Origin: Escherichia coli
Lineage (GTDB): Bacteria > Pseudomonadota > Gammaproteobacteria > Enterobacterales > Enterobacteriaceae
Assembly (NCBI RefSeq): GCF_045037415.1
Contig: NZ_CP173438.1
Reading direction: 5' to 3' (one strand)
Length of the DNA: 64,000 nucleotides
The notes below the pieces were generated by a model. The model saw nothing but the letters and a program-made list of their open reading frames with translations. It made no database searches and was not told the origin of the DNA. This document shows, piece after piece, positions 3,215-56,538 of this stretch (the first letter of the stretch is position 1; each line of letters starts with the position of its first letter). Made by a program: the position numbers and the translations under genes.

Positions 3215-5491
3215 TTAATGCGCTGCTTCCGCCTTGTGCTTTTGTGCACTCTGGAATCCGTAAGTCAGCTCATTTTTCTCTTTATCCAGCGCGACGGTGA
3301 CCTGACCGCCGTCCACCAGCGAACCAAACAGCAGTTCGTTGGCGAGCGGTTTTTTCAGGTTGTCCTGGATGACACGCGCCATCGGACGTGCGCCCATTGC
3401 CCGGTCGTAACCTTTCTCGGCCAGCCAGTTACGCGCTTCCTGGCTCACTTCCAGAGAAACACCTTTCTGATCCAACTGAACCTGCAACTCGACGATGAAT
3501 TTATCCACCACCTGATGGATCACGTCGGTTGACAGATGATCGAACCAGATAATGTTGTCGAGACGGTTACGGAATTCCGGTGTAAAGATCTTCTTGATCT
3601 CTTCCATCGCATCGGTGCTGTTATCCTGGTGGATAAGACCAATGGATTTGCGCTCAGTTTCCCGTACCCCGGCATTAGTGGTCATCACCAGCACCACGTT
3701 ACGGAAGTCCGCTTTGCGTCCGTTGTTATCGGTCAGCGTACCGTTATCCATCACCTGCAACAGAATATTGAACACGTCCGGGTGCGCTTTCTCGATTTCG
3801 TCCAGCAGCAGCACCGCATGTGGATGCTTGATGACCGCATCAGTCAGCAAACCGCCCTGATCAAAACCAACGTATCCCGGAGGCGCACCAATCAGACGGC
3901 TGACGGTATGGCGTTCCATATACTCGGACATATCAAAGCGCAGAAGCTCAATGCCCAACGCTTTCGAAAGCTGTACCGTCACCTCTGTTTTCCCGACCCC
4001 AGTAGGGCCGGCAAACAGGAACGAACCGACCGGTTTATGTTCGTGACCTAAACCTGCACGCGCCATCTTAATGGCTTCAGTCAGCGCCTCAATGGCTTTA
4101 TCCTGACCGAAGACCAGCATTTTCAGGCGATCGCCGAGGTTTTTCAGGGTATCGCGGTCACTCTGAGAAACACTCTTCTCTGGAATGCGTGCAATACGGG
4201 CCACCACGGATTCAATATCCGCCACATTAACGGTTTTCTTGCGTTTGCTTACCGGCATCAGACGTGCGCGAGCGCCCGCTTCGTCGATAACATCAATCGC
4301 TTTATCCGGCAGATGACGATCGTTAATGTATTTCACCGCCAGCTCTACCGCCGCACGCACCGCTTTTGCGGTATAACGCACGTCGTGGTGCGCTTCATAC
4401 TTCGGTTTCAGGCCATTGATGATTTGAACAGTTTCTTCGATTGACGGTTCAGTAATATCAATTTTCTGGAAGCGACGCGCCAGAGCACGGTCTTTCTCGA
4501 AAATGTTGCTGAACTCCTGATAGGTTGTCGAACCAATTACGCGGATTTTACCGCTGGAGAGCAACGGTTTAATCAGGTTAGCCGCATCGACCTGGCCACC
4601 AGACGCTGCACCCGCACCGATAATGGTGTGGATCTCATCAATAAACAGGATGCTGTTAGTGTCCTGCTCCAGCTGCTTGAGCAACGCTTTAAAACGTTTT
4701 TCAAAGTCGCCGCGATATTTTGTGCCCGCTAACAGGGAACCGATATCGAGAGAGTAAATCGTACAGTCAGCCATCACTTCCGGCACATCGCCCTGAACAA
4801 TTCGCCATGCAAGCCCCTCCGCAATCGCGGTTTTACCGACACCAGACTCCCCCACCAGCAGCGGGTTGTTTTTACGGCGACGGCAGAGAACCTGAATAGC
4901 ACGCTCCAGCTCCTTCTCACGACCAATTAGTGGGTCGATTCCGCCCACTCGCGCAAGCTGATTCAGGTTCGTCGTGAAATTCTCCATACGTTCCTCCCCA
5001 CCAGCTTGTTCTTCGCTGTTTGGCTGGCTGCCAGGATCAGAAGACTGTGTCGGCTCGTCTTTACGCGTGCCATGAGAGATAAAGTTCACCACATCGAGAC
5101 GGCTGACTTCATGTTTGCGCAACAGATATGCCGCCTGCGACTCCTGTTCGCTAAAGATAGCGACCAGAACGTTTGCACCGGTAACCTCATTGCGACCGGA
5201 GGACTGGACATGGAAGACCGCACGTTGCAGTACACGCTGAAAACTCAACGTCGGCTGTGTGTCGCGCTCCTCTTCACTGGCAGGCAGAACGGGTGTGGTT
5301 TGTTCAATAAAGGCTTCCAGTTCCTGACGGAGCGCAACCAAATCTACAGAACACGCTTCCAGCGCCTCCCGGGCAGATGGGTTACTGAGCAGCGCCAGTA
5401 ACAAGTGCTCGACGGTCATAAACTCATGACGGTGCTCGCGCGCTCTGGCGAAAGCCATATTTAAACTGAGTTCCAGTTCTTGATTGAGCAT
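3215..5491 (-). CDS. clpA: ATP-dependent Clp protease ATP-binding subunit ClpA (758 aa)
   Basis: ORF 3215..5506; known N-terminus [14 protein letters not shown] begins at ATG 5491; two AAA+ Walker A motifs GESGVGKT and GPTGVGKT. Confidence 0.95.
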
Positions 5492-51725: not shown

Positions 51726-51756
51726 CAGGCCGGGCAAAATCATTTGTCCGGCCTGC
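51726..51756 (+). terminator. Terminator-like hairpin after rimO
   Basis: Stem caggccgggcaaa/tttgtccggcctg (one mismatch); weak U-run. Confidence 0.35.
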
Positions 51757-51765
51757 GAATAATGA

Positions 51766-53094
51766 TTACTGCCAGCTAATCTGCGCCCTGCCGTTTTTCT
51801 TACTCTTATACAGCCGCTCATCCGCCAGCATTTTCAATCGTTCGACGGTAGTACATTCATTTGAATGCGCTACACCGATACTGGTGCTTAAATTAATGCT
51901 TCCCACCTGGAAATGAACGATTTCTTTTAGAATCGATAGCAACTCTTCCAGCGTGCCGCCAGTATAAATCACCGCAAATTCGTCACCTCCGAAGCGGTAG
52001 ACTTTACCTTTATCTACCGGGATCTGTGATTTAAGGATTTTCACCACTTTCATCAACACTTCATCGCCCAGCAAATGACCGAAGGTGTCGTTAATGTTTT
52101 TGAATTTATCGACGTCAAACAGGCACAAATAACCGCCTTTTTCCGGCAGCGCTTTTAAATCTTCGTCAAAGGATTTTCTGCCCATCGCTTTGGTCAGGTC
52201 GTCCAGGAATGCCGAGTTATACATACTGTAGAGTTTTTTGACATCGGCAGCCGAAAAGAAAAGCCCGCCATCCAGTACGCGTTCAAAATGGTTATTAATA
52301 ATGGCTTCTTTCTCCACAATACCACGATTAATCACTCTGCGTACCAGATAGAGGCAACTGGCACCCGATATCACTGCCACCAATGCGGCAAAGAAAATAA
52401 TCAATGTACATACCTGAAAATAAACGTCTTTTTTATAAGCAAATACGTACAATCCGGTCGGCAAATAGGAGAAGTGCTCCATTGCTTCCGAAACGGTGAA
52501 GATGGCGTTTTTAGCGTTATATTCATCACCGGTCACCGATTTACCGTTCTTGAACAGGGAGAACATCAGGTTCTCGCTATCCATCGCCAGCGATTTTGAC
52601 AGTAAAGAAAAACGTTCCAGACCAAGCAAAAATATCAGACTACGATTGTGAGTTACCGGATAGAGGTAATAGACGAAGGTTTTACCATCAAAAGAGATAA
52701 ACCCTGTATTTTTGACATGTCGATACTTAACAACCTGCATAATATCTGCACAATAATTTTTCTCAAACTCCTTTACCTGAATACATTCGTCACTGGAAAT
52801 CAGATAAGGACCGACATCGTACAAATAAGAGGGTGAAACCGAGTCGGCGTAAGCTGTGCGTAAGCCAACCAACAGCTGTTCCTCCGTAGGATTTAGCGTG
52901 TTGATCAGATCAATTGCCACACTCCGCCGATATTCAGCAATATTTGCCACCGCAAAAGCAGTATCAATAACGGACTGTTTCAGGCCATACACCCGTTCCT
53001 TTACCATTTGAGTGTAGATCCCGCAGGCAACTGCTGAAATCATGATAAAAATCAGCAGACTGACTGTAAGTACGAATTTATTGATTCTGGACAT
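51766..53094 (-). CDS. dgcI: Diguanylate cyclase DgcI (YliF), membrane-anchored GGDEF protein
   Basis: 442-aa ORF; GGDEF active site (RFGGDEF); N-terminal TM segments; 8 nt downstream of pdeI. Confidence 0.9.
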
Positions 53095-53101
53095 ACGTAA
53101 A

Positions 53102-55450
53102 CTACTCTTTTACTAATTTTCCACTTTTATCCCAGGCGGAGAATGGCATGGGTTTCTGGTACAGATACCCCTGAGCCTGAACACATCCTAATTTGATTAA
53201 TTCACGCGCAACGTCTTCGCTCTCTACGCCTTCCGCAATCACCGGGATCCGGTTATAGCGTGCCAGATCGAAAATAATGCGCACAATTTTTCCCGCAGTA
53301 CCGAAAATATCGCCGGTAAATTGCGAATCCACCTTTATACTGTCTGGATTAATTTCATAAAAACGTTTCAGGTTTGACAAACCGGTGCCAAAGTCATCAA
53401 TCGATACCCGTACCCCTTGTTTACGCAGTTGTTCAATATTGAGATAGAAATGTTCATTAATTCGCTCGATCACGGTTTCGGTGATCTCAACACAAAGGCT
53501 GTTCGCCTTCAGGCCATTTTCTTTCATGATGGTAGTAAAACGCTCATGAAAGTGTGGTTCGTTTAACTGCCAGGGCGAAACATTAATATGCAGTAAGAAA
53601 TCATCCTTCAGCGACGCACGCTGACTAAAATGTCTGAATTCACCCATCGCGGTTTTAATAATTTGATAGCCCAGCTCATTGATAAACCCGATATCTTCAG
53701 CAATGGTAATGAACTTCAGCGGTGAAATAATCCCCCGCTCCGCAGACACCCAACGGCACAACGCCTCCGCGCCCAAAATGGTGCGGGTGTTAATATCAAC
53801 AATCGGTTGATAGACCAGGAATAGTTCGCCAATTTCCATTGCATGGCGAATATTACGCGCAATCCAGATATTCTCTTCTATTTCGTTGAGTTTCGCATCA
53901 TCACAGAAAATAAACTCTGAGAACATATGGTTGCGGATACTGGAAATCGCCAGTTTCAGCTTTTCTGCGTAACTCCAGGCGTTTTCCCCCTGCAAAGGTT
54001 CACAAATAGCAGACTTATGGATGCGCAGATTGCGGTAGCCAAAACTGCTGTCAAAATCGTTTACCGTCGCTATCTTACGGGTAAACGTCTGTACATTTTC
54101 CCGGCACAGGAGTAAATAGAGATCGGCATTAAATGTCACGATATCGCAGCATTGCGCATATTTCTCGGCAATTCGCTGACACAATTTCCTGACGATTTTA
54201 TTGCGTTCATCAACACCAAACACCGCTTCCACAGCTTCCAGACCACACAGTTTGATGATCCCCACAGCCAGATACTGATTATTGTTGGACTCAATAATCG
54301 CCATATTTTTAATAAAACCGCTTTCCTGATCGTAAGAGATCAGCGAGAGCAATTTATTTGCCCGTTCAATTTCAGCATCTTTCATTTCCGCGATCGAATT
54401 TTTGATGCTGATAATCTCTTTCGCATCGCCTTCACGAATCTTCAGGGCCTCGATTTGATCCGTAGAGTCAGGCAAAAACGCCAGCGTATTGACCAAATCT
54501 GTCATTTCAGAAAATTGACGACGGAAAACTCGAGTGGTCATTAAATAAACCACCAGCAATACGATAATAATGAAAGCAAACGGCAGATAAAAAAGTTTAT
54601 CTGATGCGTTCAATAAATTACCACCAGGATAATAAAAATAGATTTCGAATAATGCGTTGTTTGGCACCGCTGATGTTTTTTCAATATATTCCGTATCGAC
54701 AGAATCAATAATATTATAATTACCTTCGCTATTATAAATAATCAATTTTTCACGAGCGAGTTGATTCTTAGCAATGATCTCATGACCTTGCTTTAAAAAT
54801 AGAACTTCATCATTAGCGCTGATGTGATCAAGATACTCGTTCAGATATCGCCAGTTTAAATCGACATGAATTTTATCTACCGCTAACAAATCATGATCTT
54901 TGCCGTTGATGTGTAGCGTAAAAGAGATACATTTTTTACCCGGACGATCAAAGCAATTGTATGCCGGGTTCCAGCTGTTGTTAGAGTCATCTGAAGCCAT
55001 CGACCACGGTCGTTTCGATGGGTTAAAATCGGCAAAAATAACCCGCCCTGACTCGTCGACAAGCGGTCCATTTACTTGTTCCTGATGATAAACAACGATT
55101 TTATCATTCGCCCTCCGCGAAAAGAGATAATATTTATTATCATCAAGTACCAGTCCCACCGAGTCTAAAAATGGCATCATTTCCATTTTCAGAATCACGG
55201 CACGTTGAATCTCCTCTGTATTTTTTAATAAATACAGTGAGTCCTTTAATGTCAGGGCCGAACGTTCAATATCTTTAAAGAAATAGCCAACGTTTTTCTG
55301 AATAAGTTCAAAGCGGCTATCGGCACGTTTTACCGCGCGTTCCGATACCAGTTGATAGTTAATGATGAAAAAAAGACCAATAAATGACAATGCTGCCAAT
55401 AAAAATAAAATTATCAGCCTTATCTTTATCTTTTCGTATAAACTCAGCAT
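53102..55450 (-). CDS. pdeI: c-di-GMP phosphodiesterase PdeI (YliE), membrane-anchored EAL protein
   Basis: 782-aa ORF; N-terminal TM segments with periplasmic region; C-terminal EAL domain (GAEALCRW). Confidence 0.9.
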
Positions 55451-55487
55451 GTTAATACATTTAAAAAAATAACTGTCTGAACGCTGT

Positions 55488-55521
55488 GCCGCTGCAAAAT
55501 AGTCCCTTGCTGCGGCTTTTT
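55488..55521 (+). other. Terminator-like hairpin with T-run in the gsiD-pdeI intergenic region, plus-strand orientation
   Basis: gccgctgcaa/ttgctgcggc stem (one mismatch) followed by ttttt; no plus-strand gene ends here. Confidence 0.35.
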
Positions 55522-55626
55522 AACCAAATTACCCGATTCTACAAAATCAGCAGAAAGTTACAACACTTGCTTAGGGCAATAATTTCCTGTGAGGTGATTA
55601 CCCTTTCAAGCAATATTCAAACGTAA

Positions 55627-56538
55627 CTATCCTTTAATTTTCGGATCCAGCGCATCGCGTAAACCATCGCCCAACAAATTGAACGCCAGTACGGTCAGAA
55701 AAATAGCCAGGGCCGGAAATACAGCGACATGCGGCGCGATAACCATATCCGCTCGTGCCTCATTGAGCATTGCACCCCACTCTGGTGTCGGCGGCTGCGC
55801 ACCGAGGCCGAGAAATGACAGGCTGGCGGCAGAGATAATCGAGGTGCCAATGCGCATGGTGAAAAACACCACGATAGAAGAGACGGTCCCAGGCAAGATA
55901 TGACGCAACAAAATGGTCATATCGCTGGCACCAATACTGCGTGCTGACTCGATAAAGGTTTGCTGTTTCAACACCAGCGTGTTGCCGCGCACCAGCCGGG
56001 CAAACGCGGGGATGGAAAAAATGGCGACTGCGATAATCACGTTAGCAATGCCGCTTCCCAACACCGCAACAACAGCGATCGCCAGTAAAATACCCGGGAA
56101 GGCAAACAGCACATCGCAAATGCGCATGATCAGCCGATCCCACCAGCCTTCATAATATCCAGCCAGCAAGCCCAGCAACGTCCCGATCGCCGCACCGATA
56201 AACACGGCAAACACGCCCGCCGCCAGCGAGATTTGCGCACCAACCAGGACACGGCTGAAAATGTCGCGCCCCAGTGAATCGACACCAAACCAGTGCTGCA
56301 AAGAAGGTCCGTTATTCAGATTGTCATAATCAAAATAATTTTCGGCGTCATAGGGAGCGATCCAGCGTGCAAAAATGGCCACCACAATCAATAAAATAAC
56401 GAACAATGCGGCGGTCATCGCCATATGCTGACGGCGAAATCGTCGCCAGAATTCATGCCACGGTGTACGTACCTGGTCAGGTTTGACCAGTGGCATGGCG
56501 TTTAACACCGCCTGACGTCGCCAGTTAAATAGTCGCAT
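55627..56538 (-). CDS. gsiD: Glutathione ABC transporter permease GsiD
   Basis: 303-aa ORF, DppC/OppC-type permease. Confidence 0.9.

Follow-up and report, generated by a model that had tools for sequence, protein, structure and literature searches.

The gsiD-pdeI spacer and its hairpin

The window analyzed here is a stretch of 64,000 nucleotides of Escherichia coli DNA. At the locus of interest, a spacer separates two genes: gsiD (55627-56538), the last gene of the iaaA-gsiABCD operon, and pdeI (also called yliE; 53102-55450), which encodes a CHASE9-EAL protein of 782 amino acids. A hairpin is located in this spacer at 55488-55516, and on the plus strand its stem is directly abutted by a run of five Ts (55517-55521). 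An earlier note on this DNA had remarked on a terminator-like hairpin that has no gene of its own orientation to terminate, and the annotation bears this out: gsiD and pdeI both lie on the minus strand, with no plus-strand gene annotated at the site. The 281-bp stretch around the hairpin is present as one copy in 5,424 of 5,426 complete E. coli genomes, always between these two genes. The hairpin site itself is single-copy in ~5,415 of the 5,426 genomes (median of one place per genome), and thus a repeat element of the REP or BIME-like kind can be rejected.

On the plus strand, positions 55488-55521 read GCCGCTGCAA-AATAGTCCC-TTGCTGCGGC-TTTTT. The hairpin and the T-run are present as the earlier note described them, but the arms that it gave as a GC stem are imperfectly complementary, with one central mismatch. 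The stem consists of five base pairs (GCCGC/GCGGC), a T.T mismatch (A.A on the other strand), and four further base pairs (GCAA/TTGC), with a plus-strand loop of 9-10 nt. On the minus strand, which is the gene strand, the hairpin reads GCCGC-A-GCAAGG GACUA UUUUGC-A-GCGGC, and the run of five Ts becomes the A5 of a single-stranded leader start, AAUUUGGUUAAAAA. The same note held that no U-run follows the hairpin on the minus strand, and this is correct: the sequence there is ACAGCGUUC, and the nearest U-run begins 18 nt farther on.

Folding of the plus-strand RNA gives -12.6 kcal/mol (z -3.5), with pair probabilities of ~1 in a hypothetical antisense RNA. For the minus-strand RNA, the value is -16.1 kcal/mol (z -5.5), and none of 200 shuffled sequences folded as well. 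The minus-strand fold is the stronger of the two because its GG/UU bases add two G.U pairs, which are A.C mismatches on the plus strand. When the whole pdeI leader is folded, the pair probabilities of the hairpin are 0.86-1.0. A search with the covariance models of Rfam 15 at a permissive threshold returned chance-level matches only (E > 1), none of them over the hairpin, and a known RNA family was rejected on this ground.

The spacer also carries the means to transcribe the hairpin. A consensus scan finds a sigma-70-like promoter, TTGTAA-16-TAGAAT, on the minus strand at 55563-55536 (-35 element at 55563-55558, -10 element at 55541-55536), and its core, GATTTTGTAGAATC, is invariant in E. coli, E. 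albertii, Escherichia lineage L094, and E. fergusonii. We take the coordinates of U00096.2 and U00096.3 to differ by 776-778 nt in this region. With this offset, the transcription start at U00096.2 872123 (+) in the Cappable-seq list for MG1655 (score 2.287; PMC4782308) maps to 55527-55529 of the window (+/-1-2 nt), on the minus strand, 7-9 nt downstream of TAGAAT. In addition, a 250-bp upstream fragment drives pdeI-BFP fusions (PMC11651652). These data show that pdeI is served by a promoter of its own within the gsiD-pdeI spacer, with a start 12-14 nt upstream of the hairpin. The SMRT-Cappable-seq data contain no pdeI entry.

Given the positions of the promoter and the start, the hairpin begins 12-14 nt into the pdeI mRNA and occupies approximately +12 to +42. 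Because transcription begins ahead of it, the hairpin is produced as gene-strand RNA. One of the two suggestions of the earlier note, a structure in the pdeI 5' UTR, is therefore supported by the conserved promoter, the mapped start, and the active 250-bp fragment. The element is transcribed downstream of the pdeI start, and its fold is more stable than expected by chance. The 5' UTR as a whole (55451-55529, minus strand) is ~78-80 nt long and AU-rich 3' of the hairpin, with no recognizable Shine-Dalgarno sequence.

Several other features of the spacer and leader can be recorded. Upstream of the transcription start (55530-55626, minus strand), the spacer is ~90% conserved between E. coli and E. 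albertii, far above the hairpin region. It includes a conserved block, CACAGGAAATTATTGCC, that is recognizable in E. fergusonii as TGTGAAATAATTGCA. This pattern suggests binding sites for regulators of the pdeI promoter. In the predicted leader fold, CAGCGU (55481-55486), just 3' of the hairpin, pairs with AUGCUG, the start and second codons (55445-55450), leaving the AUG bases with a predicted unpaired probability of 0.1-0.4. Neither L094 nor E. fergusonii conserves this pairing, and the leader as a whole folds with a weak z-score (-1.4). Immediately before pdeI there is also a mini-ORF of two codons, AUG-UAU-UAA (55460-55452, minus strand), which ends one base before the pdeI AUG. Its counterpart is GUG-UAU-UAA in E. 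albertii and AUG-UAG in L094, and it is absent in E. fergusonii. The leader is U/A-rich at the mini-ORF, with U7 in the window strain and UUUUGUU in most others. A gene-strand attenuator on this U7 run (55463-55469) was considered and rejected, as no hairpin abuts the run.

Variation of the hairpin within Escherichia

Spacers were compared among four lineages: E. coli (eight haplotypes), E. albertii (L003 and the metagenome sequences L097 and L098), L094, and E. fergusonii. PdeI identity is 87% for L094 and 69% for E. fergusonii. E. marmotae was left out of the spacer comparison, its contigs breaking inside pdeI. A metagenome pattern scan for additional Escherichia lineages yielded only E. albertii copies and unrelated DNA, and no alleles resembling those of E. 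albertii or L094 occur among the E. coli genomes.

The outer GC stem is present in six of the seven aligned sequences, representing three of the four lineages: E. coli, L094, and E. fergusonii have it, and E. albertii has lost it. Both arms are exact in E. coli, where the changes among the eight haplotypes fall in the loop and flanks and none affects the 22 stem bases. L094 retains AAAAA and GCCGCU...AGCGGC around an unrelated 18-nt interior. The E. fergusonii stem, CGCCGC/GCGGUG, is 6 bp long, includes a G.U pair, and has the same spacing from the -10 element. In E. albertii, no hairpin is found in three independent samples, although the promoter is retained, and therefore the hairpin is dispensable there.

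A covariation test on the alignment found no compensatory changes; the one pair with a double change was matched in 191 of 500 shuffles. The conservation of the stem is thus conservation of sequence only, and it speaks neither for nor against pairing. As judged from these alignments, the stem probably dates from the common ancestor and is under mild constraint, although one species dispenses with it.

Two single-strain variants were encountered in the course of these comparisons. In E. coli ECONIH5 (NZ_CP026202.1; L104, ~170-325), the 5' arm of the hairpin is interrupted by an IS1 element (AAAAAGCCG|GGTGATGCTGCC...), which parts the pdeI promoter from pdeI. In E. albertii NBRC 107761 (L003, ~5170-5206), pdeI is apparently frameshifted at a T-run near codon 28; the long ORF resumes with a GTG at 5206, and the tblastn match begins only at residue 31. 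Other E. albertii strains encode the full 782-amino-acid PdeI (P0002), and the NBRC 107761 frameshift would represent either a strain-specific pseudogene or an assembly error.

Much of this variation could be accommodated by a quasi-palindrome that is transcribed in the leader, has no function on either strand, and persists because E. coli is young. The lack of covariation, the rewriting of the hairpin interior between lineages, and the tolerance of IS1 in the 5' arm in ECONIH5 are all compatible with neutrality, as is the complete loss of the hairpin from E. albertii while promoter and gene remain. Furthermore, E. coli diversity is <2% in this region, so intact stems are weak evidence of selection. 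However, neutrality does not readily account for the recurrence of a GC-rich stem of 5-6 bp at the same position in the AT-rich, ~60%-identical spacer of E. fergusonii, for a fold z-score of -5.5, or for the clustering of E. coli polymorphism in the loop, which spares the stems. On balance, a functionless palindrome seems rather unlikely, but it deserves to be taken seriously.

Resemblance to intrinsic terminators

On the plus strand, this hairpin has features of an intrinsic terminator: a GC-rich stem base followed by a T-run, with a folding energy of about -12.6 kcal/mol. A standard terminator scan, which limits loops to 8 nt, missed the hairpin because its loop is 9 nt. A relaxed scan of both strands of the window (hairpins of <=32 nt with dG <= -12 whose 3' base abuts TTTTT) identified five sites, compared to 0.3 +/- 0.5 in 30 dinucleotide shuffles, an enrichment of ~17-fold. 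The other four sites are directly 3' of cspD, aqpZ, ybjH, and clpA, which argues that the class consists of real terminators. The gsiD-pdeI hairpin is the sole orphan among the five. Although the class as a whole is far above chance, one orphan against an expectation of 0.3 is not significant, and the true chance expectation must exceed the shuffle estimate because real DNA carries hairpins for other reasons.

A working plus-strand terminator could stop antisense transcripts just short of the pdeI promoter and gsiD. Such transcripts might start inside pdeI or result from read-through from rimO, and one possible product is a cis-antisense RNA of ~100 nt that covers the pdeI leader and start codon. 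Certain attributes of the site fit this role. It belongs to an enriched class whose other four members are genuine gene terminators, and a T5 run directly against the base of a GC stem is seldom expected by chance (245 such runs in 128 kb). The pairing probability of ~1 calculated for the antisense RNA is likewise compatible with termination, and the T5 run is retained in 93% of E. coli genomes and in L094.

The architecture is nevertheless weak for an intrinsic terminator. Along with the 9-10 nt loop and the internal T.T mismatch, the tract that follows the hairpin, UUUUUAACC, has five Us only and then AACC, compared to the ~7-9 nt of the U-rich tract of terminators. Nor is the tract well conserved, as T5 reads TATTT (UAUUU in RNA) in 336 of 5,416 E. 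coli genomes, those of the O157:H7 type, and E. fergusonii has UUAAUC even though its stem persists. No 3' end is mapped at MG1655 8728xx-8729xx on either strand in the Term-seq tables of Adams 2021, which report abundant ends only, and none is placed at the hairpin among the entries listed in the TERMITe tables.

A candidate source of antisense RNA also fails to track the hairpin. The sequence ATGACA-16-TAAAAT on the plus strand (55384-55411, inside pdeI codons 14-23) matches the promoter consensus at 10 of 12 positions and is located ~100 nt upstream of the hairpin; it would yield an RNA of ~100 nt ending there. Six sites of this class occur in the region, compared to 4.4 expected, and no transcript evidence was found for ATGACA-16-TAAAAT. 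E. albertii, which lacks the hairpin, retains the promoter-like sequence, whereas in the hairpin-bearing L094 and E. fergusonii it is degraded. With this opposite pattern of retention, the two have not been conserved as one unit. A plus-strand ORF of 36 amino acids (55362-55472) ends 15 nt before the hairpin and was rejected as a small protein gene. E. albertii and E. fergusonii lack its ATG, L094 lacks its stop codon, and its apparent conservation is a shadow of the pdeI reading frame.

The other suggestion of the earlier note, a terminator or terminator remnant for a plus-strand transcript, therefore has nothing positive in its favor except how the sequence looks. The hairpin is not found at the end of a transcription unit: it has no co-oriented gene or known transcript, no conserved plus-strand ORF, no co-conserved promoter, and no Rfam match. 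Termination of antisense transcription at this site is accordingly considered unlikely. Less probable still is the specific proposal that the hairpin and T5 terminate a ~100-nt cis-antisense RNA that starts from ATGACA-16-TAAAAT in the early codons of pdeI. Such an RNA would end within a few bases of pdeI +1, and therefore it would be complementary to the whole leader and the start codon. If it exists, it could contribute to the cell-to-cell heterogeneity of PdeI in biofilms (PMC11651652).

Among 80 GsiD loci from other species, pdeI and the spacer are found only in E. albertii, and the 78 non-Escherichia loci have no pdeI near gsiD. Fourteen other genera were inspected, and most of them have gsiD and rimO as immediate convergent neighbors, frequently separated by REP elements. 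The spacer after gsiD in other genera has REP elements or hairpins unrelated to the one in E. coli. Atlantibacter, for example, has a classical AAAAAGGCTGCC...GGCAGCCTTTT terminator site in its gsiD/rimO spacer. A remnant of an ancestral bidirectional terminator between gsiD and rimO is unsupported, as no sequence similarity to the E. coli hairpin is evident and the pdeI promoter is located between gsiD and the hairpin.

The genes pdeI and dgcI (51766-55450) together form a two-gene, AT-rich insert (35-45% GC, vs 50-55% in the flanks) that is restricted to Escherichia among the 80 GsiD loci. This base composition was counted in favor of antisense starts within the insert. At the far end of the insert, the 46-nt convergent spacer between rimO and dgcI carries a strong 13-bp hairpin (51726-51755; CAGGCCGGGCAAA-AUCA-UUUGUCCGGCCUG) of about -23 kcal/mol. 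This hairpin lacks a U-tract along the rimO strand, and along the dgcI strand it is followed by no more than a weak tail rich in U, AAUUAAUU. Lacking proper U-tracts, it is a noncanonical terminator for both genes, and some read-through from rimO toward pdeI is therefore conceivable.

Candidate roles in the pdeI message

The considerations above indicate that the hairpin is real and resides in the leader of the pdeI mRNA, and that it probably looks like a terminator on the opposite strand only by coincidence. In favor of a leader stem-loop, the extra G.U pairs exist only on the gene strand, and the 6-bp stem of E. fergusonii likewise has a G.U pair. Moreover, E. coli, L094, and E. fergusonii all hold the GC-rich outer stem at a constant spacing from the -10 element, although the interior has been rewritten. 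The reading we prefer is a stem-loop with a cis-acting role in the pdeI message, its terminator-like look being a by-product, although our confidence in this reading falls a little short of an even balance. The resemblance to a plus-strand terminator would then be incidental or would reflect, at most, weak termination of stray antisense transcripts from the AT-rich pdeI gene.

Stem-loops in 5' UTRs that govern mRNA decay are well known, and they include the 5' hairpin of ompA and structural obstacles to scanning by RNase E. The pdeI hairpin would most likely act as an obstacle of this type, lying after the 5' end and ahead of the highly AU-rich stretch that precedes the start codon. Since this stretch resembles RNase E cleavage sites, the hairpin would slow decay that depends on the 5' end. 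The pdeI hairpin is like the ompA-type elements in that it is stable, close to the 5' end, and upstream of an AU-rich, RNase E-like stretch. It is unlike them in that it is not 5'-terminal and follows a single-stranded tail of 12-14 nt. With such a tail, it cannot protect the message in the way that the 5'-terminal ompA hairpin does.

In E. coli, the same hairpin may also present a binding site to the protein CsrA. The sequence AAGGGAC, which matches A-R-GGA, is located at the apical loop and is invariant in the eight E. coli haplotypes, placing a GGA in a hairpin loop as looked for in a CsrA site. The motif is specific to E. coli, being absent in L094 and E. fergusonii. Consistent with a connection to CsrA, yliE mRNA is increased in a csrA51 mutant (PMC4844966). 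However, neither yliE nor its synonyms pdeI and b0833 appear among the entries listed in the supplementary tables of the Potts 2017 CsrA CLIP-seq study. Hairpins that bind CsrA occur in the leaders of the c-di-GMP genes ycdT/dgcT and ydeH/dgcZ, as attributed to Jonas et al. 2008 in the citing paper (PMC4549057). The pdeI leader shares with them an A-R-GGA in or at the apical loop, and pdeI is itself a c-di-GMP gene, with the mRNA increase in csrA51 given above. The leader differs in having a single GGA from the transcription start to codon 10; no second GGA is found near the Shine-Dalgarno region or start codon, and thus none lies over the ribosome-binding region.

A further explanation assigns the hairpin to the preceding operon. 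It could mark the 3' end of the iaaA-gsiABCD mRNA as a protective stem-loop that remains after Rho-dependent termination and 3'-5' trimming. In the account given by Dar and Sorek (2018; PMC6061677), as far as it concerns the protective 3' stem-loops of Rho-terminated transcripts, exactly such ends are described. The hairpin shares their stability, their lack of a following U-tract, and their position downstream of the last gene of an operon, ~110 nt past the gsiD stop codon, and there is no canonical terminator between gsiD and pdeI. Rho also acts nearby, as a bicyclomycin-sensitive 3' end has been mapped inside pdeI at MG1655 873644 (window ~54785, ~665 nt into the gene; Adams 2021). Unlike those described ends, however, the hairpin is inside the transcription unit of the next gene, downstream of the pdeI promoter and start. 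No gene-strand 3' end is reported at 8729xx in Adams 2021, and the SMRT-Cappable-seq operon reads ended earlier. Given the position of the hairpin downstream of the pdeI start and the lack of a reported 3' end there, we regard this explanation as highly improbable.

The Rho-dependent end within pdeI is accompanied by a weak sense-strand transcription start, also inside the gene (U00096.2 872536, window ~55116; Cappable-seq, PMC4782308). Together they fit a gene that is AT-rich, poorly expressed, and policed by Rho.

The preferred reading, a stem-loop acting in cis in the pdeI leader, would place the hairpin among known kinds of elements. Nothing about it departs from such kinds, and the finding is an ordinary one. 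The stakes are correspondingly modest, in that neither a leader element nor a terminator would change the current understanding of leaders or terminators. If the hairpin also stopped antisense transcription, it would represent one more terminator embedded in a 5' UTR. There is nonetheless a practical value for studies of pdeI control, as a hairpin at +12 to +42 after an Escherichia-wide promoter is a defined element to mutate. Persister-prone biofilm cells have been linked to heterogeneous expression of PdeI under the control of its native 250-bp upstream region (PMC11651652), and this region contains the hairpin.

One observation concerns the opposite end of the window. Positions 1-2871 hold genes for hypothetical proteins and for a Mor-family transcription activator (Mu-like phage), which adjoin a tRNA-Ser gene at 2784-2871. 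Judged by its gene content, this segment resembles the border of a prophage or other integrated element of the window strain.
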